From IMG/VR virus record IMGVR_UViG_3300014204_000143: a stretch of DNA of 28,697 nucleotides; one strand, written 5' to 3'. A model generated the notes under the pieces. The model did no database searches. It was not told the origin of the DNA and worked only from the letters and a program-made list of their open reading frames with translations. The DNA is from a virus. Taxonomy: Duplodnaviria; Heunggongvirae; Uroviricota; Caudoviricetes. The position numbers and the translations under genes are program-made. The stretch's first letter is position 1, and each line of letters begins with the position of its first letter. Positions 887 through 28,697 of this stretch are shown one piece after another.

Positions 887-970
887 TATAATGTAATGCT
901 GTCGGGCGACTGGCTGACTAGCTGGGAAGTGGTAAAGTGGCTCGAAGTGTTAAGCCTTGAGTAGTTGATC

Positions 971-1001
971 CTTGCTCCCTTGCTCCCTTGCTCCCTTGCT
1001 C
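971..1001. repeat. Tandem 8-bp repeat (CTTGCTCC) x ~4
   Basis: Direct reading: CTTGCTCC CTTGCTCC CTTGCTCC CTTGCTC. Confidence 0.95.
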
Positions 1002-1350: not shown

Positions 1351-1496
1351 CCCCCAAGCCCCAAGGCTAGCAAGCCCCAAGCCCCATAGCCCCCAAGATA
1401 GGGAACGGGGGGCGGTTGGTTTAACTTCCCTAAATTTTTTTTGGTGCCATACCTGTATTACCCCTCTCCCCCTCATTCCTCCCCCAACTCCCCCCC
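1351..1496 (-). repeat. Two clusters of G-runs on the minus strand (C-runs on plus)
   Basis: C5/C4/C4/C4/C5 runs at 1351-1394 (AAGCCCC-like units) and C4/C5/C5/C7 runs at 1461-1496. Confidence 0.85.
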
Positions 1497-8271: not shown

Positions 8272-8785
8272 ACCAATTAGTTTTATTCAGGGAACACAGG
8301 AACACTATCGAGAGAATGACTATGCCGCTCGGATAATCCTTAAAGCACTTTCAGAAGGAATTACAGACATAAATGAGTTAAAAAAGTTAGCTGGTTTAAG
8401 CAAGGCGGCCGAAGTTCATCGCACCCTAGACAAAATGGGAATCAGAAAAGATTACCACGAAGCTTTAGTGTTAGCTGGAATCGATATGCCATTCTTAGCT
8501 AGTAAATTAAAACAACTAATTACTGATTCTAAATCTGAAAAAATACAATTAGAAAGTATTAATACTGTTATGAAATCTGTCGGGTTAGATAAGTATGAAG
8601 CAGTTGATGACTCTGGAAAGGGTTGGGAAGAACTTATTAAGAATGCTAGTGGTAATGTTTTAGAAATAGAAGCCGAAGCAATAGAAACAGCTGACTATGA
8701 GATTAATGAGCCAGAGATGCCAGAAGAAGAAATGGTAAGAAATGATGCTGAAAAGAAATTAAGTCAAGACCTGTATGGAAAATAA
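8192..8785 (+). CDS. terS: Putative terminase small subunit
   Basis: Immediately upstream of and overlapping terL, helical, with an acidic C-terminus. Assigned mainly from position; start uncertain. Confidence 0.55.
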   Translation: MQNKENQEDITKHQETLSELAQKRTDKPISFIQGTQEHYRENDYAARIILKALSEGITDINELKKLAGLSKAAEVHRTLDKMGIRKDYHEALVLAGIDMPFLASKLKQLITDSKSEKIQLESINTVMKSVGLDKYEAVDDSGKGWEELIKNASGNVLEIEAEAIETADYEINEPEMPEEEMVRNDAEKKLSQDLYGK

Positions 8786-13887: not shown

Positions 13888-14703
13888 ATGTCTAATGAAG
13901 GACTAGATACATTCGATGACGGTAACGACATCAATGTTGACGATTTATTCGGCGAACCATCAACAGGTGGCACTCCAAAGAATGAATCAAAAAAAGAGAA
14001 AGCAGAAGAAACTGTTCCTTTAGCTCGTTACAAAGATGCTGAAAAGAAAATTTCAGAAATGGGAGAATCAATAGCAGAAAACACCAAATGGTTTAGTCAA
14101 GCTAAGCCGTGGTTGGACAAACTAGTTGAGTCTCCAGAAATAGTAGATGCTATTTTAAGTGGAAAATTGGATAGTAACTTATCCAAGGCAATTGTTGAAG
14201 GTAAAATTTCAACGGAAACTGCCAAAGAAGTTACACAAGCAAAAGAAGAAGTTAAAGAGGAATTAGGTAAAGACTTTATTAAGTTAACTCCTCAACAGTT
14301 GGAAAAACTTGTTGACGAAAAACTTAATGAAAGACTAGACACATTCAAAGAAAAAATTGACACAGAATTTAGTAAACACAAGGTTAGTGACGAAGCCGAA
14401 AAAGAAAATAGTGCTTTCGTTAGTAGAACCCCAGATATTGCTGAATATGCCGATGAAATTAATGAATGGTTGTCAGAACCAAGTCACCAAAACATTTGGA
14501 GGCTTGAAGATGCTTATTATGCAATCAAGGGTCGTAGATTTATGACTCGTGCTGCAGAAAAAAAAGCTAAAGAAGAAACTGAAGCTAAAAAACAAATTGC
14601 ATTAAATGCTAATGGTGCTTCATCTCAAGCAGGGACTCTTGAAAAAGATAACCTAGTTGATTCTATATTTAGTGGTCACGTCAATGCCAACAAACCTCGT
14701 TAG
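13888..14703 (+). CDS. Putative capsid scaffolding protein
   Basis: Acidic N-terminus, charged helical body, located between portal and capsid. Confidence 0.7.
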   Translation: MSNEGLDTFDDGNDINVDDLFGEPSTGGTPKNESKKEKAEETVPLARYKDAEKKISEMGESIAENTKWFSQAKPWLDKLVESPEIVDAILSGKLDSNLSKAIVEGKISTETAKEVTQAKEEVKEELGKDFIKLTPQQLEKLVDEKLNERLDTFKEKIDTEFSKHKVSDEAEKENSAFVSRTPDIAEYADEINEWLSEPSHQNIWRLEDAYYAIKGRRFMTRAAEKKAKEETEAKKQIALNANGASSQAGTLEKDNLVDSIFSGHVNANKPR

Positions 14704-14741
14704 TCTTCTGTTGTAATTAATTAATTTTATAAAAAAAGAAA

Positions 14742-16001
14742 ATGTCAACAGAATTTCCTTACCGAGCAGAACCTTCCCACAAAGTTGGGACTTCTACTAC
14801 TGGTACTCGCACAACCTCCACGCTTGATACAGCTGGTCAGTTGAAATTGGATGTCGCAGATAAAATTTACCTCTTAGAGGTCAATGCTCATCCTTTCGTA
14901 TCATACCTTACCAACGTTGGTAAGACTGTTAACGGACAAGCCGTTACAGGCAGTTCACTTTCAAAAGCTGTGACTGGTAATCCTAAATTTGAATGTATTG
15001 AAGATTCACATGGTGGCGTGTGGGCAAAAGTAAGTGGTACTTATGCTGCTTCAGGTGCCTTAACTATTACCGTAACTGGTGCTGGTTCAGAACCTGCTTA
15101 TATCTTTACCGTTGGTGACCTTTTCAAAAATGTCAGAACTGGTGAAGTTCAAAAAGTTGCTACAGTTGCTACTGCTACAACTATTACAACTGCTTCGACT
15201 GGTCGTGCTTATGGTACTACTGCCGCTGCTGCTGGTGCTGATGGTGATGACTTGCTTATCATTGGTAATGTTAATGAACAGGGTGCAACAGTTCGTAATG
15301 TCAATACTACAATTGCTAGTAAAACTTACAACTATACCCAAATCTTTAGAAACACTATCTCCGTAACAGGTACAGCCGAAGCCTCAGAAACTTATGGTGA
15401 AAATGATAGAAAGTTCCAACAGCGTAAAACAGCCGTTGAACATGCTAAATCTATCGAAAGACACTTCTTGTTTGGTGAAAGAAAAGCTACAACTGGTTCC
15501 AATGGAAATCCAGAATATGCAACTGGTGGTATTTTAGAACACATTGTTACTTCAGATGCTTATGTACAAGACCAAGACGGTCCATTAACAGCTCCTGATT
15601 TCAACTTGTTCCTAGAAAAAGGTTTCACTTATGGTAGTACAACCGATAAATTCTTGATGTGTGGTGGTACTGTTTTGAGTGCTATTAATGAATTCTCACG
15701 TGGTTCATTACAGACATCTATCGGAGACGAATATTATGGAATTAAAATCCATAAATATGTCTCAGCATTCGGCGACATCAATATTGTTCGCAATCCAGAA
15801 ATGCAAAAAGAATATGCTGGTTATGCTTTCTTGCTCGATATGAATTCATACAAGTATAGATTCTTGAAGGGTCGTGATACTAAACTCAGCTTGAATGTTC
15901 AAACTCCTGGTACCGATGGTATGGTGGATGAATATATCACAGAGTGCGGTCTTGAAAGAACTCTTGCTTCACAAAATGCTCTCTTGAAGGGTGTTGTCTA
16001 G
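14742..16001 (+). CDS. Major capsid protein (SU10-like/DUF5309-type, HK97 fold)
   Basis: Motifs NYTQIFRNTISVTGTA, EHAKSIERHFLFG and TGGILEHI; follows the scaffold. Contains an Ala/Thr-rich beta-strand insertion. Confidence 0.85.
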   Translation: MSTEFPYRAEPSHKVGTSTTGTRTTSTLDTAGQLKLDVADKIYLLEVNAHPFVSYLTNVGKTVNGQAVTGSSLSKAVTGNPKFECIEDSHGGVWAKVSGTYAASGALTITVTGAGSEPAYIFTVGDLFKNVRTGEVQKVATVATATTITTASTGRAYGTTAAAAGADGDDLLIIGNVNEQGATVRNVNTTIASKTYNYTQIFRNTISVTGTAEASETYGENDRKFQQRKTAVEHAKSIERHFLFGERKATTGSNGNPEYATGGILEHIVTSDAYVQDQDGPLTAPDFNLFLEKGFTYGSTTDKFLMCGGTVLSAINEFSRGSLQTSIGDEYYGIKIHKYVSAFGDINIVRNPEMQKEYAGYAFLLDMNSYKYRFLKGRDTKLSLNVQTPGTDGMVDEYITECGLERTLASQNALLKGVV

Positions 16002-16023
16002 TTAGTAGTCTTCTTATCCTACG

Positions 16024-16050
16024 GGGTGGTGGGATATAAAATCACCACCC
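16024..16050. terminator. Stem-loop after the capsid gene
   Basis: GGGTGGTG...CACCACCC, no U-tract. Confidence 0.45.
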
Positions 16051-16138
16051 TACGTGGACTAGTTCTACGTCCCGACCAGGTTACGGGTAATTAACCAGAT
16101 GCCGTTAATTCGGTGGTTTAATTAATAAATTTTAAAAA

Positions 16139-16870
16139 ATGTCTAGTGTAAATTCAATGGAATTGAAAAAACTAAGTGCAAAAGGAAGCGTCGGTTCTGT
16201 AATCGATGATAAAGCTGTTGCTCTTAGAGTTCGTTATAAGGGAACTGGTACGGTTACCTCTGTAGTTGTTACCGCTGGCACAAGCGTTGTTTTAACTTCA
16301 TCTGATGGTGGGGCAGAAACATTTGCTTTTGCTACTTATACAACCATGGGTACGTTGGCTGATAAAATCAATGCTTCAAGTTATTGGAAGTGTAAACTTC
16401 TTGATTGCTTAAGAACTGATTTAACAAGTTCAAGTGCTATTTTAAATAATGCTGGTGTTACAATTGACAGTCTTGGTAATTATGATTTGTTGCTTGATAC
16501 GTCAGTTTGTCTTGATAGTGCTAGTGCTCACGTTTTCACGTATCGTGTTACGTTTGATAGAAACTTTGATAAATCTGGTATTCAACCACAACACAGAGTT
16601 CGTTTACAAGAAATTTTCTATAATATCGACGTAAGCGGAGCAGCTGCTAATGGTGTTCGTATTTACGAATGGGATGCTTCAAAGAAAACAGAAACTCAAG
16701 TTTATCGAAATACATCAGTTGATGCTACCGATACAACTAAAAACTTTGCTGGTGGTAATGGTACGCTTGATTCAGATTTTGGAAATGATTTGATTGTCAG
16801 AATTGTTGATGCAACCTCAATTACAAATGCTACTGCCAATGTTTTACAAGTCACGTATATTGCTGAGTAG
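16139..16870 (+). CDS. Putative virion structural (decoration/cement-like) protein
   Basis: Beta-rich T/V/A/G composition, directly after the capsid gene. Confidence 0.55.
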   Translation: MSSVNSMELKKLSAKGSVGSVIDDKAVALRVRYKGTGTVTSVVVTAGTSVVLTSSDGGAETFAFATYTTMGTLADKINASSYWKCKLLDCLRTDLTSSSAILNNAGVTIDSLGNYDLLLDTSVCLDSASAHVFTYRVTFDRNFDKSGIQPQHRVRLQEIFYNIDVSGAAANGVRIYEWDASKKTETQVYRNTSVDATDTTKNFAGGNGTLDSDFGNDLIVRIVDATSITNATANVLQVTYIAE

Positions 16871-17577: not shown

Positions 17578-18768
17578 ATGCAGGTAAAAACAGTTGATGA
17601 TTATTTTTCATTTTTCTACGACCCACATATTTATGGGGGTGGTAGTATTGATGAATTAATCAGAATTTACACAGGGAATTGTAATGTTGTTAATGGAAAA
17701 CTAAGAGTTTATGCGACCGCAACCGATAGTGCTATTATAAACACTTCATTCATGCACATGCTGGGTGACTGGGTTGCTAAGATAAAAGTGCCTACTGCAC
17801 CAACCAGCGGAGATAACCGTGTCTGGGGTTTATATTCCAGAAGTTACGGTAATCGAAATGCTGCCTATTTCTTTATAAGTGGTACAAATTTTTACACAAG
17901 AACATATGATGGTGATGGAAATGTAGAATCAAGAAGTATTACATGGGATACCTCGTGGACAAACACCGAGGTTGAATGGGAAATTAGGTGGAGAATCAAT
18001 AAGATTGAATTCTTAGCTAATGGTAGGGTGTTAAGCACAATTACGAAATCTCTTGGTGATTCTACATCACAATTTGATATAACAAACACATACGCAGATA
18101 CTTATCGATATACGTGGGATACAACAGGAACAGACCCAGAATTATCGTTAGTATCAAAATCAGACAATGTTCAGATTTATTCGGCAAAGTTTAGTTCTGG
18201 GAATAATGGAACATTTAATGTTTCTAACGTAGGAACAAATTGGTTTGAAGTAATTAATCCAAATGGAGTTGCTGAAAATAACAAGACTCTTGGGGTTGCT
18301 GGTTACGTTAATCTTTTAGGTGGAAGAAGTTCTCATTGGAGTCACATTCCAAAACAAGTATTAATTCCAACTTATTTCTCAAATGCTGGTAAGCCAGCAA
18401 CTGATGCCTTAGTAATGGATTGGTTGAGAATTGAAGGTGCTCGCAAATTCCAACAGGCTACTTGTAGTTATTACAGTTCTACTTCAACTACGTCTAGTTC
18501 TACTTCATCGTCAACTTCGTCTAGTACGTCTAGTTCGACTTCAAGTTCAACATCTAGTTCGACTTCTTCGTCAACTTCGTCTAGTACGTCAAGTTCGACT
18601 TCAAGTTCTACGTCTAGTTCAACTTCTTCGTCAACTTCGTCTAGTACGTCAAGTTCAACTTCAAGTTCTACATCTAGTTCGACAAGTTCATCAACTTCGT
18701 CTAGTACGTCAAGTTCAACTTCAAGTTCTACGTCTAGTTCTACAAGTTCAACAACAACACTTCCATAG
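17578..18768 (+). CDS. Putative virion protein: ConA/GH16-like beta-sandwich plus C-terminal Ser/Thr tract
   Basis: WEIRWRINKIEFLANGRVL resembles the ConA-like lectin/glucanase strand motif; the C-terminal 95 residues before LP* are only Ser/Thr. Confidence 0.7.
   Translation: MQVKTVDDYFSFFYDPHIYGGGSIDELIRIYTGNCNVVNGKLRVYATATDSAIINTSFMHMLGDWVAKIKVPTAPTSGDNRVWGLYSRSYGNRNAAYFFISGTNFYTRTYDGDGNVESRSITWDTSWTNTEVEWEIRWRINKIEFLANGRVLSTITKSLGDSTSQFDITNTYADTYRYTWDTTGTDPELSLVSKSDNVQIYSAKFSSGNNGTFNVSNVGTNWFEVINPNGVAENNKTLGVAGYVNLLGGRSSHWSHIPKQVLIPTYFSNAGKPATDALVMDWLRIEGARKFQQATCSYYSSTSTTSSSTSSSTSSSTSSSTSSSTSSSTSSSTSSSTSSSTSSSTSSSTSSSTSSSTSSSTSSSTSSSTSSSTSSSTSSSTSSSTSSSTSSTTTLP
18475..18759 (+). repeat. 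(TSSS)n coding repeat 1, 95 codons, with a 60-nt higher-order period
   Basis: TCAACTTCGTCTAGTACGTC recurs exactly at 18511, 18571, 18631 and 18691. Confidence 0.95.
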
Positions 18769-18778
18769 TTCAATATTG

Positions 18779-18799
18779 GGGAGGGGCAACCCTCCCTTT
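18779..18799 (+). terminator. Intrinsic terminator-like hairpin with GNRA loop
   Basis: GGGAGGG-GCAA-CCCTCCC-TTT; short U-tract. Confidence 0.6.
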
Positions 18800-18825
18800 G
18801 AACGTTTAATATTAAATTATATACT

Positions 18826-20118
18826 ATGAATAAAGATAACATTAAGAATATCGAACCTATCGATATTATTTTGGTTTCTTATAATAGATTAAACTTTTTA
18901 AAAAAAATAGTAAATGAAATATATGAGAGAACAAATTATCCTCACAGATTAATTGTAGTTGATAACAATTCTGATGATGGTTCTAAGGATTGGTTACAAA
19001 ACGCTAAATTAAATGGTTTTGTTTCTGAAAACATATTTTTAGAAAAGAATAACGGATTAGCTAATGGATATACAGAAGGTTTTAAACATGTAAGAAGTAA
19101 ATATTTTATTACTACCCAGGATGATTGTTTACCACCAAAGTTACAACCATGTTGGCTTGAAAGAATGGTACATTTATTTGAAAAATATGATAATGAATAT
19201 TTAGCTTTATCAATGAGAATTCAAAGAATTAGACATAGAAAAGTTGATGAATTTGACGATATTATTGAATCACCAACATCACTAGCCTCAGTATTTAGAA
19301 TTCAAAGAAAAGAAGAAATAGAACAGGTTGGAGGTTTTGGTAACAGACAACATTGGGAAGGGGTTAGTTTTGTAAAAATGACAAAACATTTTAGAAAAAA
19401 ATACGGAGTTACGACACACATTTATTCAGACCACATTGGATTTATGTCAAATAATAAAGGTTTTAAAGAAGGTTTTAAGGACTATTTTACATATTCACCA
19501 GAGAGAGTTAATCAGGGTGAATTACAACCATATCCAGACGTAGAACCTAAAAGTTTAATTCCAATAAAAATAAATACAACAAGAGATTCTGTTGAGCAAA
19601 ATAAACGAAAAGAGTATTACGATTATTGGGGTCACGATATGAGAAAAGGAAAATTAAGATTAACAGAAGAACAGTTGGAATTATCTAAGTATTGTGAAAC
19701 TGGTGTTGGTTTAGATTTGGGTTGCGGAATGATAAAATGCAATAATAATTGTATTGGTATGGACGTTTATCCTCACGAGTGTGTAGACGTTGTTGGTGAC
19801 TGCACTGACTTGTGGATGTTTAAGGATAATGAGTTGGATTTTATAGTAAATGCTCATTTATTGGAACATTTACCAGACACACCAACGGTATTAAAAGAAT
19901 GGAAAAGAGTTTTAAAACCAGGAGGAATTTTAGGTATAGCGGTTCCTGATGGAGAAATTAAACATAAATATATTATTAAAAATGGTCATAAGGTAAACTT
20001 GGGTTTAAAGACATTAGAATTACTCGTCCATCGAGTAGTTGGAATGAAAATACTTAGATTGGAACAAGTTAAGAAGTCACCTGGTAAATTTGTCGCTTTA
20101 ATTATTGCTAAAAAATAA
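18826..20118 (+). CDS. GT2 glycosyltransferase fused to a class I SAM methyltransferase
   Basis: IDIILVSYNR...LIVVDNNSDDGS and TTQDDC (DxD-like); C-terminal LDLGCG, FIVNAHLLEHL and EWKRVLKPGGIL..AVPD. Confidence 0.88.
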   Translation: MNKDNIKNIEPIDIILVSYNRLNFLKKIVNEIYERTNYPHRLIVVDNNSDDGSKDWLQNAKLNGFVSENIFLEKNNGLANGYTEGFKHVRSKYFITTQDDCLPPKLQPCWLERMVHLFEKYDNEYLALSMRIQRIRHRKVDEFDDIIESPTSLASVFRIQRKEEIEQVGGFGNRQHWEGVSFVKMTKHFRKKYGVTTHIYSDHIGFMSNNKGFKEGFKDYFTYSPERVNQGELQPYPDVEPKSLIPIKINTTRDSVEQNKRKEYYDYWGHDMRKGKLRLTEEQLELSKYCETGVGLDLGCGMIKCNNNCIGMDVYPHECVDVVGDCTDLWMFKDNELDFIVNAHLLEHLPDTPTVLKEWKRVLKPGGILGIAVPDGEIKHKYIIKNGHKVNLGLKTLELLVHRVVGMKILRLEQVKKSPGKFVALIIAKK

Positions 20119-20120
20119 AT

Positions 20121-20732
20121 ATGAAAGTATCAATTATAACAGCTGCTTTTAGAGCAGAATATATGGATAGAGTATGGCAATCTGTTTTATCTCAAACGCA
20201 TAAAGAATGGGAATGGATAATAGTAAATGATGGACAAGATTCTATTAGAGAATGGTTTAACAAATCAAAGTCAAGTGGTATTTTTGAAGGATACGATGTT
20301 TGGTTTATTGATGTTACAAAAAATATGGGTAGATTTGGTTTATATGCTAGGAATATTGGTATAGTCTCATCACATAATGAGCATATCGTATTTTTAGATG
20401 ACGATAATGAATTTAACCCAGACCATATTGAGAGTCTTCTTAGTCTTGAAATATCTTCAGGAAAAGTTCCTTATTGTTATTTGCATATCAAGGGAAAGAA
20501 GGAAGATTCAAAGTTTGAAAGGGTAAAGGTTACTAATCTGCATAGGGGACAAATAGACCTTGGATGCGTGTTATATAAAAAAGAATATTTTGATAAGTTC
20601 GGATATTTTAGAAATGATTCACAGATAACATTTGACTGGAATTGTATAGACAGAATTTGGAAAGGGTTAGGAAATGATTCATTTGTATCAACTGAAAATC
20701 CATCATTAGTCTTTTGGCACAGAAGATATTAA
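20121..20732 (+). CDS. GT2 glycosyltransferase
   Basis: MKVSIITAAF, SVLSQTHKEWEWIIVNDG, ARNIGI, HIVFLDDDN. Confidence 0.88.
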   Translation: MKVSIITAAFRAEYMDRVWQSVLSQTHKEWEWIIVNDGQDSIREWFNKSKSSGIFEGYDVWFIDVTKNMGRFGLYARNIGIVSSHNEHIVFLDDDNEFNPDHIESLLSLEISSGKVPYCYLHIKGKKEDSKFERVKVTNLHRGQIDLGCVLYKKEYFDKFGYFRNDSQITFDWNCIDRIWKGLGNDSFVSTENPSLVFWHRRY

Positions 20733-20733
20733 A

Positions 20734-21048
20734 ATGAGAGATTATTTAAAAGACATCAATATAGTCCAAGCAATGTTAGTATTTAGAGAGGGTGATTTAC
20801 TTGACCAATCTATACCAAGTTTTTTAAAATATGCTGATAAAATTATAATAATGCTTGATAATAGTGATGAATATACAGAAAATAAGGTAATGTCGTATAA
20901 GTTAAAATATCAAGATAGAATAATTGTTAATCAATCTGAGTTCTATAAACTAGAATCTTCTCCAGAAAAGATGAATTCAAGATTCTGTAAATTAGAAGGT
21001 AAAATACGAAACAGTTTATTAGATTCTGTTAGAAATGAAAATAATTAA
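20734..21048 (+). pseudogene. Truncated GT2-like protein (N-terminal half only)
   Basis: AMLVFREGDLLDQSI...ADKIIIMLDNSDEYT...EGKIRNSLLDSVR, then a stop just before where the DxD strand would be expected. Confidence 0.55.
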
Positions 21049-21057
21049 AAATAAAAT

Positions 21058-22164
21058 ATGTCAATACAAGAAAAAGTTAAATTAATACAAGGTGGTAAAT
21101 TTGAAGGCAGTTCAATTACTAACGGAAAAATTTATCACGATTTACCATTTGAAAAACTTGGTAAAATAAGAAGTCACCGTGGAAATACTCGTGGTAGAAT
21201 TAATCAAATTTTAGATATTGTTGATGTTAAGGGTAAGACTGTATTAGATATAGGTTGTAATGTTGGAGGAATATCTCTCGGAATGGCAGAGGCTGGTGCT
21301 AGTTATGTTATGGGTGTTGATTATGATAAGGAGAGTATAGATATAGCAGTTGAGGCAACAAAAGAACTAGAATTTACAAATGCTAATTTTGATTGTGAAA
21401 ACATCGACATTAATTCCTTAAAAGACATTAAAAACTATGACATTATCATCTGGCTTTCTCAGTGGCAATGGATGGTTAAACAATATGGATTAGATATTGC
21501 CAAAGATATGTTGTTTGAAGTATCTAGAAAGTGTGAAGTTTTGGTGTTTGATAGTGCTTCTGATGATGGGATGGCCAGAATAAAGGGTTCAACTCAAGAT
21601 GATATTGAAAATTGGTTATTAGAAAATACTTGTTTTGATACTATAATTAGATATAAAGGTTTACCTGGATGGCTTAATAGAGACTTGTTTATTTGTAGCA
21701 ACCCAGTTAAAAGAATAAAAGATAGACACATAGCGGCATCATCTATTATAGAGAGAATTAGTAGAAACGAAATTAAAAAAACATATAAATTAAGTAATAT
21801 ATGGATGGTAAAGCGTGAATCTGAGTTTTTAACAGCACTTAAAGACAGTATTCATTTTCCAAAATTAATAGAAACTGGTGATAATTACATAGTAATGAGT
21901 TATTGTGGTAGACCTGGAAAAGTGACTAAGGATATGGAAACTCAAACAAGTGAAATTTTAAAAGCACTAGAAATTGCAGGAATTAAACACAGAGATATAA
22001 GGAGTGGAAATTTGTTATCTTTAAATGGTATATTATATTTAATAGATTTTGGGTTATCAATTTGGATAACTGAGACAGATACGCCATTTTTATCTGCCAA
22101 AAGGTTCAGAAAAGAGTCAAATACTGATTCTAGTGCTATAAATGAATTTTTTAAAAGTTTGTAA
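21058..22164 (+). CDS. Bifunctional SAM methyltransferase-kinase (WbdD-like domain order)
   Basis: TVLDIGCNVGGIS...GVDYD (SAM motif I), followed by kinase motifs IKKTY, RESEFL, HFPKLI, IVMSY, HRDIRSGNLL and LIDFG. Confidence 0.85.
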   Translation: MSIQEKVKLIQGGKFEGSSITNGKIYHDLPFEKLGKIRSHRGNTRGRINQILDIVDVKGKTVLDIGCNVGGISLGMAEAGASYVMGVDYDKESIDIAVEATKELEFTNANFDCENIDINSLKDIKNYDIIIWLSQWQWMVKQYGLDIAKDMLFEVSRKCEVLVFDSASDDGMARIKGSTQDDIENWLLENTCFDTIIRYKGLPGWLNRDLFICSNPVKRIKDRHIAASSIIERISRNEIKKTYKLSNIWMVKRESEFLTALKDSIHFPKLIETGDNYIVMSYCGRPGKVTKDMETQTSEILKALEIAGIKHRDIRSGNLLSLNGILYLIDFGLSIWITETDTPFLSAKRFRKESNTDSSAINEFFKSL

Positions 22165-22258
22165 ATCGACTTTCTCTAACTAAACATTAGTTTAAGACAA
22201 ATCTGGGTTAACAATAAACTAATTTATCCTATTGGGTTGACATTAGATATTTATGACT

Positions 22259-22272
22259 AATGTTATAATTAA
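22259..22272 (+). promoter_or_regulatory. Variant of the putative late promoter motif
   Basis: AATGTTATAATTAA matches the last 14 nt of the 21-mer; lies upstream of the fibre module. Confidence 0.65.
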
Positions 22273-22327
22273 TGTATATATGAAGATTATTATCTAACGA
22301 TAGTAGTCTTTTTTTTAAAATAACACT

Positions 22328-22555
22328 ATGTGGACAGCAACATTAAAAGAAATAAAAACAGAAAACGAAACAATCGTCTATGAAATTGAATACTCAAGAG
22401 ATGGAAAATCATTTAAAAGGCTTTATCAGGTTTCAGCCCTTGGGTCTATTGAAGAAATTCAAAAAGTAGCTCAAGACCAAATCAATACATTGATTGCAAA
22501 CGAAAGTGTTGTTGAGGATATTTTAGAATATTTAGACCAACCATTAACCGAATAG
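22328..22555 (+). CDS. Small hypothetical protein, possibly fibre-associated
   Basis: 75-aa ORF; the next gene starts 1 nt after its stop. Confidence 0.65.
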   Translation: MWTATLKEIKTENETIVYEIEYSRDGKSFKRLYQVSALGSIEEIQKVAQDQINTLIANESVVEDILEYLDQPLTE

Positions 22556-22556
22556 T

Positions 22557-25226
22557 ATGGCAACAGTAGTATGTGCCGCTTGTGCGGATGGAAATTTAAC
22601 CTCAGCCTCAACTTGGGCAATATGTGATCAGAGTTCAACCGCTGGACTTTCTTTTTTAGATACAGAAGGAAGTTCTGGAGTTGCAATTGGTTCAACACCA
22701 GCATATAGTGGTAATTTTTCTTGGACTTCTGGTGCTCCTACAATTGATGGGATTGGCTTAAAACTTGCAAGTCGAGCCGCATCAGTTTCGGGAACAATTA
22801 CGGTAATTTTAAGAGATGTAACTGGTTCTTCTAATGTAAAAACCGTAACAATAGATGCCGCAGATTTATCAGCACAATCTTATGGTTGGACATTTTTTAA
22901 GTTTGATTCATCAACCGCACTCTCAAACTCTAATAATTATGCTGTTGGTATTTCGGCATCAACAACACAACCAATTACAATTTTAAAACGAACGTCAGAT
23001 AATGATTTTGCTAAATATTTAAGAACAACAACAACTGGTGCTCCTGCCGCCGATGATGTAATGATTGTTTGTGGTGAATTTACCGCCGCAGGTGCAATGA
23101 CAACTAGAACGGTTACAATGAATAGCACCGCCACAACATCTTATGGGGTGGTTGCAGTGACAACATACTTACAACACATCTCAGTTGGACAAGGTGGATA
23201 TTGGAATAATGGAACAACCGCCTCAACTGATTATAATTTTACTTGGAAAGGTATATTTCAAGTTAGTGGTGGTGGAACGCTTAACATAGGTAGTTCTGGC
23301 ACTCGTTTCACTTCATCATCTACCGCAAGTTATAATGCGGCTGCCACTGCTAGTGGTAATACTGGTATAGTTTATAATATCGGGGCAGTAGTCAATATTT
23401 ATGGAACTACTAAGAACGAACAGACACTATTAACCGAATCTATCGGTGGAATTTGTTCAACTTCAGGGACAACGGTTACCAGACACACTGGTCTTTCATT
23501 CACTGGACTATCGGGGACACTTACAATCAATAGTGTTGGATATACCATCGCATCAGTAACAGATGCTGACCACCTAGAATTAACGGGAAGTCCTGGTAGT
23601 CAAACATATAAAAATTATATTCACTCAACTGCCAATGTAGTCAAGGTTGTCTCGACTTCTGGTTGGGTAGCTGGAGATACCTTGGCTTTTGCAGGAACTG
23701 GACAGAGTGTTTCTGAGGGTGAAAGTGCAACGATTTCAAACGTCGATAGTGCAACCCAAGTAACACTTTCGACTTCACTAACAAAACCCCACATTGTTGA
23801 TGGGTATGATGTAGTTGCTGAAGTCATCAATCTAACCAGAAATGTTAAATTTTTTGGAACATCTAGCTATGGAGGATATTCAGTGTCTGAGTCATCTGCT
23901 GTCGTTAATATTCACGATGTCGAACACTATTATTGGGGATATAATGCCACTGGTAAAAAAGGAATGACAATTCGAAGCACCACTGGTTCTTGTAATTTTC
24001 TTCACAATTCAATTTATAACTCAAACTTCACGGGTAATATTTCAGTCGATGTTTTGGGAAGTTCTTCGAATAATATTTTGATTGAATACAATGTTCTTTA
24101 TAATGTTACTGTTGGAATGTCGTTGGCAACATCTTCAAATGCAACTCATTGCCATAACAACTGCTTAATAACTTGTGCTGGTAACGGAATCACTTCTGGT
24201 AATCTGATTCACGAGATTTCTTATAATAGAATTGCCAATGCAGCAACAAACGGATTAAATTATAGTAATCCTGCTGGAGTCACTATTGGTCTTTGTGATA
24301 ACAATATTTGTCATAGTTGTAGTAGTGGACTTACAATCAACGCCGTCTATGCACAAGGAAACATTACAAATTGTAAAGCTTATAACAATGTTGGTAATGG
24401 ATTTAACTTTACATCCGCAATTCAAAATATAAAAATTAGTGATTCAAAAACATTTGGTAACGCAAGCAAAAACTTATTATTCACTAGTGCCGCTGGACAC
24501 GTCCTTTTAGATAACGTCACTCTTGGTGGTTGGATAGGTAGTGGTTCTGCTGGGTCAGGTGTTTATATGGAAAATGTTTGTTTTGATGTTAGAAGTAAAA
24601 ACTGCTCATTCGGGGTTACTTCGGGTTCGATTGTCGGTCAGGTTACTTCTGATTTTTACTTTACTGGTTTAAATTACGGTAAGTGGGTTGATGATAATAG
24701 TTATTTTGGTTCATCGACTTTGATAACTGGTCCAACAAGAATTTATTCAATGTTTCCTGGCGACCCATCAATGTTATCTTTTGAAAGATTTAATCGTACT
24801 GCTGGTTCTCATAAAACTTATACGAGTGAGGGATTGATTGAAATCGATACTACTGAATATTATGGAGCGAGTGGAGAGTCAACTCGAATGACACCTAACG
24901 CAAATGCGACTACATCAAATAGAATGAAAAGTTATGAATTTAAATGTGCCGTTGCTAGCGGAAATACAGTAACTCCAACACTATATTTAAAGAAAAATGC
25001 TTCTTATGACGGTTCTCAACCTCGACTTTATGTTAAACAAAACTATGCTCTCGGGATAACCGCCGATACACTCTTGGCGACTTATGCTTCAGGGACTGGT
25101 TCTTGGAATTCTCTTGGAGGGGTAGCAACTGCTTCTGTGACCGATGATGGAACTTTATCTTTTTATGTTGATTGTGACTACAACACTGGTGGTTATATAA
25201 ATATCGACACGGTAAATATTCCTTAA
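22557..25226 (+). CDS. Putative tailspike/receptor-binding protein with right-handed parallel beta-helix
   Basis: Asn/Gly/Cys-rich PbH1-like repeats (HNSIYNS, YNVLYNV, HNNCLIT, YNRIANA, DNNICHSC); AEVINLTRNVKFFG motif; beta-rich C-terminal domain. Confidence 0.75.
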   Translation: MATVVCAACADGNLTSASTWAICDQSSTAGLSFLDTEGSSGVAIGSTPAYSGNFSWTSGAPTIDGIGLKLASRAASVSGTITVILRDVTGSSNVKTVTIDAADLSAQSYGWTFFKFDSSTALSNSNNYAVGISASTTQPITILKRTSDNDFAKYLRTTTTGAPAADDVMIVCGEFTAAGAMTTRTVTMNSTATTSYGVVAVTTYLQHISVGQGGYWNNGTTASTDYNFTWKGIFQVSGGGTLNIGSSGTRFTSSSTASYNAAATASGNTGIVYNIGAVVNIYGTTKNEQTLLTESIGGICSTSGTTVTRHTGLSFTGLSGTLTINSVGYTIASVTDADHLELTGSPGSQTYKNYIHSTANVVKVVSTSGWVAGDTLAFAGTGQSVSEGESATISNVDSATQVTLSTSLTKPHIVDGYDVVAEVINLTRNVKFFGTSSYGGYSVSESSAVVNIHDVEHYYWGYNATGKKGMTIRSTTGSCNFLHNSIYNSNFTGNISVDVLGSSSNNILIEYNVLYNVTVGMSLATSSNATHCHNNCLITCAGNGITSGNLIHEISYNRIANAATNGLNYSNPAGVTIGLCDNNICHSCSSGLTINAVYAQGNITNCKAYNNVGNGFNFTSAIQNIKISDSKTFGNASKNLLFTSAAGHVLLDNVTLGGWIGSGSAGSGVYMENVCFDVRSKNCSFGVTSGSIVGQVTSDFYFTGLNYGKWVDDNSYFGSSTLITGPTRIYSMFPGDPSMLSFERFNRTAGSHKTYTSEGLIEIDTTEYYGASGESTRMTPNANATTSNRMKSYEFKCAVASGNTVTPTLYLKKNASYDGSQPRLYVKQNYALGITADTLLATYASGTGSWNSLGGVATASVTDDGTLSFYVDCDYNTGGYINIDTVNIP

Positions 25227-25249
25227 TTAATAAAAACTTCATATAAAAA

Positions 25250-26848
25250 ATGGCTTCGGTAGACCCACAAGGAGAACAAAATTATTGGGAAGATGGTCTT
25301 CCATTTAGAGGGATAAAAAATGGAAGCCATGATGCTGGTGAAATGCAGTTCTGGGACGAAGGGCTTCCTTTTGCATACTTATTTCCTTCTGGAGCAACAA
25401 CGACATCAACGAGTAGTTCTACAAGCTCTTCGACTTCATCGTCTACAAGTTCTTCGACTTCGAGTAGTACGTCTAGTTCGACATCAAGTTCTACGTCTTC
25501 ATCAACAAGTAGTTCCACTAGCTCATCAACAAGTTCAAGCACATCTAGTTCAACTTCATCGTCTACAAGTTCTTCGACTTCGAGTTCTACGACTTCATCG
25601 TCTACAAGTTCTTCAACTTCAAGTTCTACGTCTAGTTCTACGTCTAGTTCGACTTCAAGTTCTACAAGTTCTAGTACTTCGAGTTCAACATCAAGCAGTA
25701 CTTTAAGTTCAACTTCATCATCTACTAGTTCTTCAACTTCTAGTACTTCGTCGTCAACAAGTTCATCAACATCATCTTCTACTTCAAGTTCGACAAGTAG
25801 CTCAACATCAAGTTCGACAAGTAGTTCTACATCTTCATCGACTAGTAGTTCTACGAGTTCATCAACAAGTTCAACTTCGAGTTCTACCAGTTCTAGTACG
25901 TCTAGTTCTACATCTTCATCGACGAGCAGTTCAACTTCGTCAAGTACGTCTAGTTCAACGTCAAGTAGTACAAGTTCATCTACCTCAAGCTCAACTAGTT
26001 CTTCGACAAGTTCAACTTCAAGTTCAACGTCAAGTTCGACTTCATCGTCTACGAGCAGTTCAACTTCTTCGAGTACGTCTAGTTCGACGTCTAGCTCAAC
26101 GTCTAGTTCAACTAGTTCTTCGACTTCAAGTTCAACGTCTAGTTCAACTTCAAGTTCTACGTCTTCATCGACAAGTAGTTCGACTTCAAGTTCTACGTCT
26201 TCATCGACAAGTAGTTCGACTTCTAGTTCGACTTCTAGTTCTACGTCTTCATCGACAAGTAGCTCGACTAGCTCTTCGACTTCAAGTTCAACGTCTAGTT
26301 CAACTAGTTCTTCGACTTCAAGTTCAACGTCTAGCTCGACAAGTAGTTCTACAAGTTCTAGCACATCTAGTTCGACTTCAAGTTCTACTAGTTCTTCAAC
26401 TAGTAGCTCAACGTCATCTAGTACATCTCTTCCGTCTGACGAAGACTATTCTAGGGGAGACTATGCTAATTTGCCATTAGACGAAACAGACCTAGAGACT
26501 TTATTTTCTTCATCAGATTATTTAAAAGTAAGAACTGTTGATAGTATTTTTGTAGACCAAACAGCAACTGCTGAATATTCTGTCTTCTTATTTAAAAATC
26601 AAGCACCTGACGCTATTAATCCTCCGAATATGACGTGTGTCGCTAAAAGTAGTTTAGCTCCAACAATTTCAACTGTTTATTTACAAGTATATAACTTAAC
26701 AACGTCTTCTTGGGAAACCTTAACGTCAAATTCTGTCGCTAATGCTGATACTCCGTTTACAATGACAGCATCGCTAACTAGCGGTTTAGACGACCATCGA
26801 GATGTTGGTAATTGGTATTATTTTAGAGTTTATCAATTACAATTTTAA
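25250..26848 (+). CDS. Mucin-like putative virion protein: 49-aa head, 344-aa Ser/Thr stalk, ~140-aa distal domain
   Basis: Direct translation. The N-terminus contains the duplicated motif GEQNYWEDGLPF / GEMQFWDEGLPF. Confidence 0.8.
   Translation: MASVDPQGEQNYWEDGLPFRGIKNGSHDAGEMQFWDEGLPFAYLFPSGATTTSTSSSTSSSTSSSTSSSTSSSTSSSTSSSTSSSTSSSTSSSTSSSTSSSTSSSTSSSTSSSTTSSSTSSSTSSSTSSSTSSSTSSSTSSSTSSSTSSSTLSSTSSSTSSSTSSTSSSTSSSTSSSTSSSTSSSTSSSTSSSTSSSTSSSTSSSTSSTSSSTSSSTSSSTSSSTSSSTSSSTSSSTSSSTSSSTSSSTSSSTSSTSSSTSSSTSSSTSSSTSSSTSSSTSSSTSSSTSSSTSSSTSSSTSSSTSSSTSSSTSSSTSSSTSSSTSSSTSSSTSSSTSSSTSSSTSSSTSSSTSSSTSSSTSSSTSSSTSSSTSSSTSSSTSSSTSSSTSSSTSLPSDEDYSRGDYANLPLDETDLETLFSSSDYLKVRTVDSIFVDQTATAEYSVFLFKNQAPDAINPPNMTCVAKSSLAPTISTVYLQVYNLTTSSWETLTSNSVANADTPFTMTASLTSGLDDHRDVGNWYYFRVYQLQF
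25397..26428 (+). repeat. (TSSS)n coding repeat 2, 344 codons
   Basis: All Ser/Thr except one Leu (TTA at 25703); mixed synonymous codons. Confidence 0.95.
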
Positions 26849-26866
26849 TAAATTAACTTCAATTAT

Positions 26867-27622
26867 ATGGCAATTTCTCAACCAATAAGTACGGATAACT
26901 TAAATAGTCCAGACCATTCATTATCTCATAGAGTTTTCGCCAATGACCCGTCTTCACCAGTAAAAACAGTTGCAGTTGATTCTTCTGGAAATACAACAGT
27001 TGGAGATGGCGGAATAACAAATTATACAAAATTTGGAGTTGATGGTTATCAAACGTTATACGGTGCAGCACAAGGATTATTAACACTACGTCCAAATTTA
27101 GTACAAAAAGCTAGTAAACAATTAGGAACTCCTACGGAAGTTTATAGGGGTTGTAATGTTGGTTATTCTTTTCCAGTTTGGAATAGTGATAATGAAGAAT
27201 TATATTTTAGATTAAGAGTTCCTTCTAGATGGGATGGTTCTACTGACCCACAACTCGGAATTATGTGTACAATAACAGAAGCAGAGGACGTTGGTGATAA
27301 ATTTAAGTTTCAACTTGAATGGCAGACAACTGTGTGTGGAGGAACTACTGTAATGGGGACGACTACATCAAGTTGTGTGAGCGAACAAACAATAATTTCT
27401 GGTGGGAGTGATGCAAACACGGCATACTGTTTATTTTTTAATTTAGATGCATCAGATGCTACAAATTCTATATTAATTGGAGATATGCTTCAGGGTAGAT
27501 TAAGAAGAATTGCCGCATCATCTAGTAGTGTAAGTAATGAAATTACTGTATGGGATTGGGTAAGTAGATGGAAAACAAATAAAGTTTTTGGAGTTTGGTC
27601 TGTAGAAACTAATGCTAGTTAA
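26867..27622 (+). CDS. Putative structural protein (beta-sandwich C-terminal domain)
   Basis: 251 aa, beta-rich (LYFRLRVPSRWDGSTDP...FKFQLEW), located between two Ser/Thr genes. Confidence 0.65.
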   Translation: MAISQPISTDNLNSPDHSLSHRVFANDPSSPVKTVAVDSSGNTTVGDGGITNYTKFGVDGYQTLYGAAQGLLTLRPNLVQKASKQLGTPTEVYRGCNVGYSFPVWNSDNEELYFRLRVPSRWDGSTDPQLGIMCTITEAEDVGDKFKFQLEWQTTVCGGTTVMGTTTSSCVSEQTIISGGSDANTAYCLFFNLDASDATNSILIGDMLQGRLRRIAASSSSVSNEITVWDWVSRWKTNKVFGVWSVETNAS

Positions 27623-27626
27623 ATAA

Positions 27627-28697
27627 ATGTCAAGAAAATTATACAATTCAGAAGATGCCACCTATGGAGATATTGATAATTATTATAATGGTGGAGAATT
27701 GGGTACATTAAGCATTGATTTGTGGAATGTAGTTTTTTCTGGAACAACAACATCTTCTACAAGTTCTAGTACTTCATCATCTACATCCTCTTCGACTTCT
27801 AGTTCTACATCTAGTTCAACTTCATCGTCAACAAGCAGTTCAACATCTTCAAGTACGTCTAGTTCAACGTCTAGTTCTACATCAAGTTCTACAAGTTCTT
27901 CGACTTCAAGTTCTACGTCTTCATCGACTAGTAGCTCAACGTCTAGTTCGACTTCAAGTTCTACGTCTTCATCAACTAGTAGTTCTACGTCTAGTTCGAC
28001 ATCAAGTTCTACGTCTTCATCGACTAGTAGCTCAACGTCTAGTTCGACATCAAGTTCTACGTCTTCATCGACTAGTAGTTCAACGTCTAGTTCTACATCA
28101 AGTTCTACAAGTTCTTCAACTTCAAGTTCAACGTCTTCATCAACAAGTAGTTCAACGTCTAGTTCTACTAGTAGCTCTACATCTTCATCAACTTCAAGTT
28201 CTACAAGTTCTTCGACTAGTAGTTCTACAAGTTCTTCAACTTCAAGTTCTACGTCTTCATCTACGAGCAGTTCTACTTCTTCATCGACTAGTAGTTCAAC
28301 TAGTTCTTCGACTTCAAGTTCTACGTCTTCATCTACGAGCAGTTCTACTTCTTCATCGACTAGTAGTTCAACTAGTTCTTCGACTTCAAGTTCTACGTCT
28401 TCATCAACAAGTAGTTCTACCAGTTCTTCAACCTCAAGTTCAACATCAAGCAGTACATCAAGTTCAACTTCATCATCTACTAGTTCTTCGACTTCAAGTT
28501 CTACGTCTAGTTCAACTTCATCGTCTACGAGTAGTTCAACTTCTTCGAGTACGTCTAGTTCAACAAGTAGCTCAACATCAAGTTCGACAAGTAGTTCTAC
28601 ATCTTCATCAACAAGTAGTTCTACTTCAAGTTCGACTTCAAGTTCAACCAGTTCTACCTCGTCATCGACTAGTAGTTCTACAAGTTCTAGTACGTCA
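27627..28697 (+). CDS. Third mucin-like protein, partial (runs off the window; not in the ORF track)
   Basis: ATG at 27627: MSRKLYNSEDATYGDIDNYYNGGELGTLSIDLWNVVFSG, then an open Ser/Thr frame to the window end. Confidence 0.8.
   Translation, partial: MSRKLYNSEDATYGDIDNYYNGGELGTLSIDLWNVVFSGTTTSSTSSSTSSSTSSSTSSSTSSSTSSSTSSSTSSSTSSSTSSSTSSSTSSSTSSSTSSSTSSSTSSSTSSSTSSSTSSSTSSSTSSSTSSSTSSSTSSSTSSSTSSSTSSSTSSSTSSSTSSSTSSSTSSSTSSSTSSSTSSSTSSSTSSSTSSSTSSSTSSSTSSSTSSSTSSSTSSSTSSSTSSSTSSSTSSSTSSSTSSSTSSSTSSSTSSSTSSSTSSSTSSSTSSSTSSSTSSSTSSSTSSSTSSSTSSSTSSSTSSSTSSSTSSSTSSSTSSSTSSSTSSSTSSSTSSSTSSSTSSTSSSTSSSTSSSTS
27744..28697 (+). repeat. (TSSS)n coding repeat 3, at least 318 codons
   Basis: Ser/Thr codons continue in frame to the last base. 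Confidence 0.95.

Follow-up and report, generated by a model that had tools for sequence, protein, structure and literature searches.

A candidate phage-encoded O-glycosylation system in which (TSSS)n tract proteins co-vary with glycosyltransferase clusters

Phage-encoded O-glycosylation of the phage's own particle-module proteins is the best explanation, held here with moderate confidence, for a locus that combines long (TSSS)n tracts with a cluster of glycosyltransferase (GT) genes in an uncultivated landfill and groundwater phage of 93 kb. A phage that glycosylates its own fibres is favoured because the enzyme set and the long tracts have been gained and lost jointly in the relatives of this phage. 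The stretch of DNA analysed (the window) comprises 28,697 nt; coordinates refer to it, and all features located by them lie on the + strand. The locus was also present in a second, independent groundwater study, and no RNA runs holding it were found. The lineage is marked by an SU10-type capsid, portal and adaptor, and its host is probably a member of the Patescibacteria (CPR bacteria). The enzyme genes are situated inside the structural module, with the capsid gene on one side and the SU10-type adaptor gene on the other.

According to the initial annotation, three + strand genes contain Ser/Thr tracts, of 95, 344 and more than 318 residues, and the corresponding open reading frames were found in the claimed frame. 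Tract 1 (18475–18759), a proposed O-glycosylation acceptor, occupies aa 300–394 of g396, and its 95 residues (68 S, 27 T) form 21 units in 12 DNA versions. Tract 2 (25397–26428) spans aa 50–393 of g532, a total of 344 aa including one Leu. Tract 3, which begins at 27744 in g494, covers aa 40–357 within the window (at least 318 aa) and 415 aa in the full protein. Two further tract proteins are encoded just past the window on the same contig, one of 951 aa with a tract of 287 aa and one of 147 aa whose tail measures 58 aa. The tracts of the initial annotation therefore stand, but its total of more than 750 acceptor residues in three proteins does not; since the third tract is 415 aa long in full and two more proteins carry tracts, five proteins together have approximately 1,199 Ser/Thr residues in tracts.

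As judged from the sequence, these tracts are genuine coding sequence, selected as peptide. The 81 TSSS units of g532 occur as 54 different 12-nt versions, and AGT and TCN serine codons interchange at every Ser position of the tract, a codon pattern for which selection on the + frame is the sole explanation. Conserved non-repeat domains continue in frame on either side of the tracts. No such tract was found in 69 loci around distant capsid relatives (0/69), so tracts of this kind are rare by chance.

The first of the tract proteins, g396 (17578–18768; 396 aa), is a conserved head-module protein with a C-terminal 95-aa (TSSS)n tail. In its AF2 model (pLDDT 79.6; core blocks mainly 90–98) a GH16/ConA-like jelly roll (aa 1–155 and ~255–299) holds a β-barrel insert of about 90 aa (aa ~158–250). 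The best structural match was lichenase 3i4i (VIA Z 18.6, rmsd 2.6, 176 residues), and the next 20 matches were all GH16. The GH16 catalytic motif ExDx(x)E is not conserved in the g396 family; g396 itself reads E-V-E-W-E at these positions, and Glu was present at them in only 9, 7 and 15 of 32 homologues. The N-domain probably has a lectin-like, structural role and no catalytic one. It is syntenic in relatives, where it is encoded by the third gene after the major capsid protein (MCP) gene. The β-barrel insert is also present five times in the contig's 1648-aa fibre, an example of the modules that tract proteins have in common with fibre or adhesin proteins.

The second tract protein, g532 (25250–26848; 532 aa), begins with 49 aa that contain two W-[ED]-[ED]-G-L-P-F motifs, continues with the 344-aa (TSSS)n stalk and closes with a 139-aa C-terminal domain, which is AF_1625_C-like with a conserved YSRGDY. 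In homologues of this C-terminal domain, a Ser-rich tract of varied type always precedes the domain, and one homologue has BspA-type LRRs. The third, g494 (27627–28697, continuing to window coordinate 29111; 494 aa), has a 36-aa N-terminus, 415 aa of (TSSS)n and a 43-aa C-terminus. Two neighbouring proteins are without tracts. The structural-module protein g251 (26867–27622) has an N-terminus in common with a 984-aa protein of relative L121. The right-handed β-helix protein g889 (22557–25226) is a candidate spike or depolymerase, with an Atlas model TM of 0.55 to CEMIP/G8 β-helix clusters; tblastn detected no homologue of it in related loci. The C-terminus of the major capsid protein bears no tract.

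Glycan-type enzyme genes in a single orientation had been described between the first and second tracts, and Pfam searches confirmed the GT2-methyltransferase (GT2-MT), GT2 and methyltransferase-kinase (MT-kinase) assignments. The intergenic gaps in the order GT2-MT, GT2_203, g104, MT-kinase are 2, 1 and 9 nt, and no membrane segment, nor any hydrophobic stretch at transmembrane level, was observed in the cluster enzymes. GT2-MT (18826–20118) serves as the signature of the TSSS-linked cluster; it combines a GT-A glycosyltransferase (aa ~10–260; GT2, 64.7 bits) with a class I SAM methyltransferase (aa ~270–430; Methyltransf_11, 52.9 bits), an architecture kept in about 60 homologues of 45–62 % identity. 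Among 57 homologues, D100 of the QDD motif does not vary, D99 hardly varies, and the DxGCG SAM motif is invariant or nearly so. The AF2 model (pLDDT 95.3) gave only GT-A enzymes as top structural matches. The nearest solved folds of the GT domain were TarP, TarS, SpsA and EpsE, which act on teichoic acids or polysaccharides; polypeptide GalNAc-transferases came close behind in score, and a protein acceptor therefore cannot be read from the fold.

GT2_203 (20121–20732) is a short GT-A glycosyltransferase (Pfam GT2, 55.7 bits) with DDD at aa 93–95. Orthologues occur in L121–L127 (34–56 % identity), with copies in L366 (48 %) and L369 (30 %), and GT2-MT plus GT2_203 were found in every cluster whose contig reaches far enough. 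The next gene, g104 (20734–21048; 104 aa), had been labelled a truncated GT2. This label is reasonable but weakly supported, as its own match to the GT2 profile (PF00535, curated cut-off 23.3 bits) is sub-threshold (13.3 bits, E 0.078). It resembles a GT-A N-terminal fragment (the nucleotide-binding half) and shares homology with the first ~100 aa, at the N-terminus, of several 260–470-aa enzymes in relatives' clusters, one longer relative matching GT2 at E 5e-6. In relatives the family is full-length, or fused to methyltransferase or LicD domains; g104 is probably a truncated gene.

MT-kinase (21058–22164; 368 aa) carries a SAM methyltransferase (aa ~50–135; Pfam span 58–131) and a RIO/ePK-like kinase (aa ~235–340; RIO1/Pkinase span 240–340), with the kinase motifs HRDIRSGN and DFG. 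Its best PDB sequence match is WbdD (4uw0, 4azw; E 1e-7). It is an accessory gene, with orthologues in L125, L126 and L245 only. Sugar-nucleotide genes are absent from the cluster in the window, and so is a GT-B enzyme that precedes GT2-MT in relatives (a weak match, E ~1e-3). Among the genes in relatives' clusters are CTP-transferase and LicD-like ones, as is typical for teichoic-acid-type chemistry; Pfam detected neither a cytidylyltransferase nor a LicD gene in the window.

It was of interest to determine how closely tracts and enzymes accompany each other in relatives. TSSS relatives lacking the GT cluster, or the reverse, had been named beforehand as the finding that would speak against the glycosylation reading; on testing, the co-occurrence held. 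Homologues of GT2-MT with at least 45 % identity and enough flanking sequence were found on 15 distinct contigs, 14 of which have TSSS tracts (39–239 aa) within 10 kb; in the exception, L369, the cluster is present and no tract lies in 12.7 kb. More distant homologues (28–31 %) adjoin T/S tracts of up to 458 aa. In the opposite direction, loci picked by capsid protein alone, with enough downstream sequence, comprised six with both TSSS and GT2-MT, 19 with neither and none that was discordant.

The type of tail follows the same pattern. Among phages with a capsid protein of the same family, the protein encoded by the third gene past the capsid gene comes in three forms: tail-less, with a tail of (TSSS)n, or with one of (SxSPS)n. 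The GT2-MTase cluster was present in 14/14 TSSS contigs. The (SxSPS)n loci (L140, L152 and L163; 3/3 evaluable) have a different cluster, composed of another GT2, a UDP-sugar dehydrogenase and Methyltransf_24, and none of nine tail-less loci had a Pfam GT2 match. Fisher's test of tail versus GT2 (table 17/0/1/9) gave p = 2e-6, with one exception of the reverse kind (L149, in which a GT2 fusion is present and no tail was seen). On the MCP tree both traits change at least five times, always jointly, and five of five independent contrasts agree, although only two phylogenetically independent contrasts lie on well-supported branches (2/2 agree). In independent IMG/VR loci picked for very long S/T tracts only (L089 and L022), GT2, GT1, methyltransferase, UDPG-dehydrogenase and GDP-mannose-dehydratase genes lie directly upstream. 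Acceptor-repeat type and enzyme type thus co-vary, and the original proposal of phage-encoded virion O-glycosylation is supported by this covariation of tail presence and type with cluster presence and type.

Several other explanations were weighed. An extremely improbable one is that the tracts are a DNA repeat or assembly artefact, with opposite-strand (ELDV)n ORFs as the real reading. Several frames are indeed open across the tracts, contig ends are frequent within them, and automatic annotation placed a minus-strand ORF of 360 aa over g532. However, the AGT/TCN interchange leaves only the + frame constant, the in-frame folded domains on both sides are homologous across contigs from different samples and assemblers, and the locus was found again in independent material. 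Far more serious, though still unlikely, is the suggestion that the tracts are unmodified flexible linkers or spacers and that the enzymes act elsewhere, on the host envelope (as a superinfection block), a capsule or a lipid-linked glycan. The prophage-borne TarP of Staphylococcus aureus modifies teichoic-acid-type polymers of the host envelope, and in structure the GT domain is closest to TarP and TarS, both teichoic-acid GlcNAc-transferases. The CTP_transf_like and LicD-like genes of relatives point the same way. In addition, S/T linkers of 30–130 aa are frequent in viral contigs, and six unrelated viral loci with short TSSS-like tracts had no GT2 cluster in their vicinity. What unmodified linkers leave unexplained is the tracking of tails by GT clusters, with at least five changes on the capsid tree and no discordant locus. 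Moreover, the cluster enzymes are without membrane segments, their genes belong to a late structural operon and not to a lysogeny or early module, and tracts of 287–415 residues far exceed the usual linker length.

A chemical variant, in which the tracts are modified mainly by Ser/Thr phosphorylation, or by serine-started polyol-phosphate (teichoic-acid-like) chains that the GTs decorate, is considered decidedly unlikely. It draws on the intact HRD and DFG motifs of the kinase domain, on the cytidylyltransferase and LicD-like phosphotransferase genes of relatives, and on the methyl-phosphate cap made by the best solved relative of MT-kinase. Yet the kinase fusion occurs in a minority of TSSS phages (the window, L125, L126 and L245), whereas the pair GT2-MT and GT2_203 accompanies every sufficiently long cluster, and the window itself has neither a cytidylyltransferase nor a LicD gene. 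Self-glycosylation accordingly remains the preferred reading of the locus.

The combination had not been recognised as a described phage system, and none was found in the literature searched, although the principle has a mycobacteriophage precedent. According to Freeman et al. 2023, as cited in PMC12619734 and PMC11256854, the capsid and tail-tube C-termini of mycobacteriophage (Che8, Corndog, Myrna) virions are glycosylated by phage GTs. Both systems have phage GT genes and Ser/Thr-bearing extensions on virion-module proteins, which here are predicted from the genes. As these sources describe them, the mycobacteriophage GTs act in the host cytoplasm without export, as is proposed for the window phage, and they modify short extensions at the C-termini of major capsid and tail-tube subunits, in contrast to the 58–415-residue (TSSS)n proposed as acceptors here, on five other proteins. 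The hosts are Actinobacteria there and probably Patescibacteria here, the lineage here is SU10-type, and the window's enzyme set (GT2-MTase fusion, short GT2 and WbdD-like MTase-kinase) differs, by description, from that of the mycobacteriophages.

Several cellular systems offer further parallels. The serine-rich repeat (SRR) adhesins of Gram-positive bacteria (GspB, Fap1, SraP and PsrP) have dedicated glycosyltransferase loci led by GtfA/GtfB; hundreds of Ser-rich residues, glycosylated by soluble cytoplasmic enzymes, form a stalk for a folded binding domain. The layout of g532, with a 139-aa C-domain behind a 344-aa tract, is similar, its homologues have the same layout with other Ser-rich repeats, and the (SxSPS)n and SASVSPS tails of relatives closely resemble SRR repeats. 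The repeat unit is nevertheless TSSS and not SxSx, the carrier is a virus particle and not a cell wall, and no GtfA/GtfB (GT4 + DUF1975), GT4/GT-B, SecA2/Y2 or LPXTG hallmark was detected among the window proteins. WbdD of Escherichia coli O9a (PDB 4azs, 4azw, 4uw0), which terminates O-polysaccharide chains, shares with MT-kinase the order SAM-MTase then ePK-like kinase and a glycan-modifying context. The significant alignment covers the MTase part only (aa 61–197), MT-kinase ends at aa 368 directly behind the kinase, has no hydrophobic stretch past the kinase core and lacks the coiled-coil ruler and membrane-binding helix of WbdD, and it has no WbdA-type polymerase partner. In the flagellin O-glycosylation of Firmicutes (Listeria GmaR; Clostridioides difficile, with methylated sugars), soluble GT2 (GT-A) enzymes add sugars directly to Ser/Thr of a structural protein in the cytoplasm, before its assembly; the sites are scattered surface Ser/Thr, as opposed to homopolymeric repeats, and the likeness is one of description only. 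Foldseek ranked TarP and the housekeeping enzyme TarS (PDB 6h4m, 5tzk) first for the GT domain (E 2e-10), at 14–16 % identity and a TM of ~0.36 by query length, a generic GT-A similarity common to dozens of families. TarP is phage-borne, but it acts on the wall polymer of the host, and such a target would leave the covariation with tails unaccounted for.

The hypothesis presented here would operate late in infection, in the host cytoplasm, where soluble GT2-MT and GT2_203 would transfer sugars from host nucleotide sugars to tract Ser/Thr hydroxyls. The methyltransferase part of GT2-MT may O-methylate the sugar and, where it is present, the WbdD-like MT-kinase may cap or modify the glycan with (methyl)phosphate. 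We infer that the sugars are attached covalently, at a density that would form a 'brush', possibly for adhesion, shielding or mimicry, and that the tract proteins are exposed on the virion. Glycosylated tracts would be extended, protease-resistant, hydrated bottle-brush stalks. Mucin-type extension is ~0.25 nm per residue, at which 344–415 tract residues would give stalks of ~85–100 nm that display the folded end-domains or merely coat the particle.

A broader idea, offered tentatively as a possibility that is rather doubtful at present, is that this lineage of phages, whose hosts are probably Patescibacteria, builds mucin-like filaments of 25–100 nm from exchangeable pairs of an acceptor repeat and a matching enzyme cassette, as a modular attachment or protection code. 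In these pairs the GT2-MTase cluster would belong to (TSSS)n, the cluster of UDP-sugar dehydrogenase and GT2 to (SxSPS)n, and distant GT2-MTases to T-rich tracts, and the type of repeat would co-evolve with the type of glycan. We know of no such modular system described for viruses of bacteria.

To our knowledge, sugar-coated phage particles have so far been supported experimentally in mycobacteriophages only. If self-glycosylation is correct, it reaches an unrelated groundwater and landfill lineage, probably on ultra-small CPR bacteria, on a far larger scale (~1,200 acceptor residues in five proteins), with enzyme types new to it (GT2-methyltransferase fusions and a WbdD-like capping enzyme) and with the repeat type apparently matched to the enzyme cassette. 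The 95-residue tail and two or three small soluble enzymes would then be a compact pair usable for cytoplasmic O-glycosylation in bacteria.

As a separate observation, gene callers systematically overlook tract genes or put them on the wrong strand, as in g532, for which the opposite strand was chosen. Protein databases therefore contain too few of these proteins, and such systems are easily overlooked.

The window comes from a metagenomic contig of 92,733 bp (ENA ERZ27247350). Its DNA was found in a landfill metagenome, and a fraction of 0.71 of sampled words was also present in an independent groundwater study. On the + strand, genes for the large terminase (8775-10229), a portal of the SU10/P22 type with an intein in it (10241-13294), what is probably a scaffold protein (between the portal and capsid genes) and a major capsid protein of the SU10 type (14742-16001; PHROG 1328, E 3.5e-33) are followed, in order, by g243, g189, g396 (17578-18768), the four enzyme genes, a 75-codon ORF, g889, g532 (25250-26848), g251 and g494 (27627 to beyond 28697). 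Past the window, in the extended locus L288 (window 16867-37622), lie g951, an SU10-type adaptor, g147, g507 and a 1648-aa fibre. The window's tract and enzyme genes thus belong to the late structural module, with the capsid gene on one side and the adaptor and fibre genes on the other. The sizes given in the initial annotation for the (TSSS)n tracts of g396, g532 and g494 (95, 344 and at least 318 residues, respectively) were correct. At full length, on the contig beyond the window, the g494 tract reaches 415 residues, and two further tract proteins, g951 and g147, have 287 and 58 tract residues, for a sum of approximately 1,199 over the five proteins.

The four enzyme genes are separated by gaps of 2, 1 and 9 nt. 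GT2-MT (18826-20118, +) encodes a 430-aa protein with GT2 and class I SAM-methyltransferase domains (AF2 model pLDDT 95.3), in which D100 and the residues of the SAM motif vary little or not at all among 57 homologues. GT2_203 (20121-20732, +) is a minimal GT-A protein with a DDD motif. The product of g104 (20734-21048, +) corresponds to the N-terminal part (~100 residues) of a GT-A-like family whose members in relatives are 260-275 aa in length or are fused to MTase or LicD domains, so its earlier description as truncated is a fair one. The MTase-kinase (21058-22164, +; 368 aa) has the domain order of WbdD, its best solved sequence relative in a PDB sequence search (E 1e-7), but the coiled coil and membrane anchor of WbdD are absent from the phage protein. 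No membrane-type hydrophobic segment was found in any of the four enzymes. The Foldseek neighbours of the GT domain of GT2-MT were generic GT-A proteins (TarP, TarS, SpsA and EpsE); polypeptide GalNAc-transferases scored a little lower, and the fold therefore does not separate a protein from a polymer acceptor. A complex prediction for GT2-MT, GT2_203 and a 61-residue tail piece scored 0.00 and counts neither way.

Megablast found no match to the region among 50,697 phage records, and a capsid protein search of phage records found relatives at 32% identity or less only. In IMG/VR, pattern scans that used a single protein (the capsid protein or GT2-MT) yielded nothing; alignment-based scans recovered relatives. 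GT2-MT has approximately 60 homologues of the same architecture (45-62% identity), and the seven contexts fetched (L121-L127) are all syntenic phage structural modules. In those that include the head genes (L121 and L123-L126), the order is capsid, g243, g189, then a homologue of the g396 N-domain whose C-terminal (TSSS)n tail is 39-226 residues long, and then larger enzyme clusters. The fetched stretch of L127 gave no match to the head genes or the g396 N-domain; its TSSS tracts measure 214 and at least 118 residues. The clusters of L121-L127 contain 2-4 GT2 and 1-3 Methyltransf_24 genes, DegT aminotransferases, and cytidylyltransferase and LicD-like genes, with the MTase-kinase present in L125 and L126.

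Sampling by capsid only gave 160 loci from metagenomes and IMG/VR, and those with enough downstream sequence were counted. Six had both TSSS and GT2-MT, 19 had neither and none was discordant (Fisher p = 5.6e-6). The co-occurrence check proposed in the initial annotation, namely that relatives might have tracts without glycosyltransferases or the reverse, thus disclosed no discordance in these counts; L369 and L149, treated below, are exceptions. On the capsid tree each trait changes at least five times, always jointly; phylogenetic control is nonetheless thin, as five of five independent contrasts are concordant and only two of these are on well-supported branches. The clearest contrast is that of L163, which lacks both TSSS and the cluster, beside L209/L210, which have both (99% support); L123, also with both, branches just outside. 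The alignment-based IMG/VR scan for GT2-MT added L365, L366 and L367, all with TSSS tracts, L369 being the exception, and two GT2-MT homologues at 28-31% identity (L370 and L371) adjoin T/S tracts that reach 458 residues. No GT2 cluster was seen at six unrelated IMG/VR loci whose TSSS-like tracts are short, which indicates that the association is specific to this phage family and to long tracts, and is not universal. Distant capsid relatives, including Saccharibacteria prophages, had neither tracts nor cluster.

In TSSS-free relatives, the same head-module protein, encoded by the third gene after the capsid gene, either stops after a domain of ~190 residues or bears an (SxSPS)n tail. Tails of the (SxSPS)n or SASVSPS type were observed in L140, L152, L157, L163, L174, L182 and L186 (e.g. 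L163:9692-9859 and L152:14963-15343), and closely resemble the repeats of bacterial serine-rich-repeat adhesins. When 116 ORFs lying downstream in 12 TSSS-negative loci were scanned with Pfam, four GT2 proteins were identified, one in L140 and two in L163, which are SPS-tail loci, and one in L149, in which no tail was seen. Genes for a UDP-sugar dehydrogenase, a GT2 and two Methyltransf_24 proteins are present in L152, which likewise has an SPS tail. It is apparent that the SPS-tail loci L140, L152 and L163 possess a different cluster, of the GT2/UDP-sugar-dehydrogenase/Methyltransf_24 type, the divergent GT2s of which were missed by family-specific GT2 HMMs and found by Pfam. Nine tail-less loci had no GT2, only a conserved ~190-aa methyltransferase. 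This Methyltransf_11 gene is found in the structural module even in members with neither a Ser-rich tail nor a glycosyltransferase (L136:8671-9357, L161:15804-16376, L165:14864-15445, L176:15205-15780, L189:17808-18368 and L202:15168-15740).

When any Ser-rich tail was scored against any GT2, the counts were 17/0/1/9 (p = 2e-6). Repeat type and enzyme type co-vary, as is predicted by an enzyme-substrate relationship and not by modification of the host envelope or of DNA. The best explanation of these sequence comparisons, and one that we regard as probable, is a putative cytoplasmic O-glycosylation of the tracts by phage enzymes. GT2-MT and GT2_203 would O-glycosylate the tracts in the cytoplasm, methylation would accompany this glycosylation, with WbdD-like capping in some phages, and the product would be extended mucin-like stalks or coats. 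Counted against glycosylation are the non-discriminating GT-A fold neighbours, the teichoic-acid-type genes in the clusters of relatives, the two exceptions (L369 and L149), the small number of well-supported independent contrasts and the six unrelated short-TSSS viral loci without GT2 clusters. That the tracts are instead unmodified linkers, with the enzyme cluster working on the host envelope, seems unlikely, since a host-envelope target does not predict the co-variation of repeat and enzyme types. Somewhat less likely again is that the tracts carry mainly phosphate or polyol-phosphate in place of classical glycans.

It is highly improbable that the tracts are an artefact of frame or assembly. 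The 81 TSSS units of g532 are encoded by 54 distinct 12-nt versions, and the 77 units of g494 within the window by 40. AGT and TCN codons interchange at all three Ser positions of the unit, and as this interchange preserves the + frame only, the tracts are protein-coding in that frame; conserved folded domains adjoin them in the same frame. Automatic gene callers placed opposite-strand (ELDV)n ORFs over the tracts (window 25282-26364 and L124:5361-5759, both on the - strand) and missed the + strand genes, so that such proteins will be lacking from protein databases. The longest exact repeats in tract DNA are 41-95 nt, versus 17-35 nt expected with a random codon draw, and Tandem Repeats Finder detected higher-order periods of 48-84 nt. 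These features suggest that the tracts grew through duplication of blocks and then drifted synonymously, with purifying selection on the peptide. Tract lengths also differ between contigs sharing 99-100% identity over 8-14 kb (76 residues in L121:6758-6985 versus at least 179 in L122:2-541, and 34 in L131:7888-7989 versus at least 65 in L130:12042-12236), through either true hypervariability or assembly collapse.

In g396 the N-domain is a jelly roll similar to GH16/ConA proteins (Z 18.6); GH16 catalysis was rejected for it because the catalytic motif is not conserved. A β-barrel module of ~90 residues (aa ~158-250; window 18043-18330) is inserted in a jelly-roll loop; it is present in five copies in the contig's 1648-aa fibre, and relatives are without the insert. 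The g532 protein consists of a 49-residue N-terminus, a 344-residue stalk and a 139-residue C-domain. This C-domain (~135 residues, window 26429-26845; P0271, P0272 and P0273) is Pfam AF_1625_C-like by Atlas. In its homologues, one of which contains BspA-type LRRs, a Ser-rich tract of varied composition (poly-S, ST or SxSPS) always precedes it, irrespective of the type of repeat and of the N-terminal domain, and a YSRGDY motif is invariant. The C-domain's candidate roles are those of a virion anchor or a distal tip. The N-terminus of g532 (window 25250-25396) has two W-[ED]-[ED]-G-L-P-F copies, YWEDGLPF and FWDEGLPF, which may constitute a docking peptide for particle attachment. The g889 protein is a spike-like β-helix. 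In phage SU10, the sole gene between capsid and adaptor encodes a putative minor-capsid or head-fibre protein (PMC9509320). The tract proteins are therefore candidates for head- or neck-attached fibres, on the basis of position and shared modules only.

In the searchable part of the literature, mycobacteriophages are the only phages whose virions are reported to be glycosylated by phage enzymes. Relative to the system as described there, the present one differs in lineage, in acceptor architecture and scale, and in its enzymes, and further in the apparent pairing of repeat and cassette. Capsid relatives at ~40% identity are prophages in Candidatus Saccharibacteria, located in large contigs and one complete 743-kb chromosome, and the bins that contain closer relatives are MAGs of Shapirobacteria and Saccharibacteria; the loci concerned are L293, L297 (OZ246398.1:404499-425713), L325 and L327. 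These relatives and the origin of the DNA from landfill and groundwater together suggest a Patescibacteria host for the phage family, a lead and not a finding.

A promoter/terminator scan was at background level (62 sites versus 55.7 expected). Window 823-1397 contains short tandem repeats with periods of 8, 10 and 22-23 (e.g. CCTTGCTC x4), is without a long + strand ORF and has a reversed GC skew. The portal intein (~aa 77-382 of the product of window 10241-13294) includes a LAGLIDADG homing-endonuclease domain. In the relatives L121, L124 and L125 free-standing LAGLIDADG genes interrupt even the capsid gene, and a DegT aminotransferase of the L121 glycan cluster (14508-16766) bears an intein.
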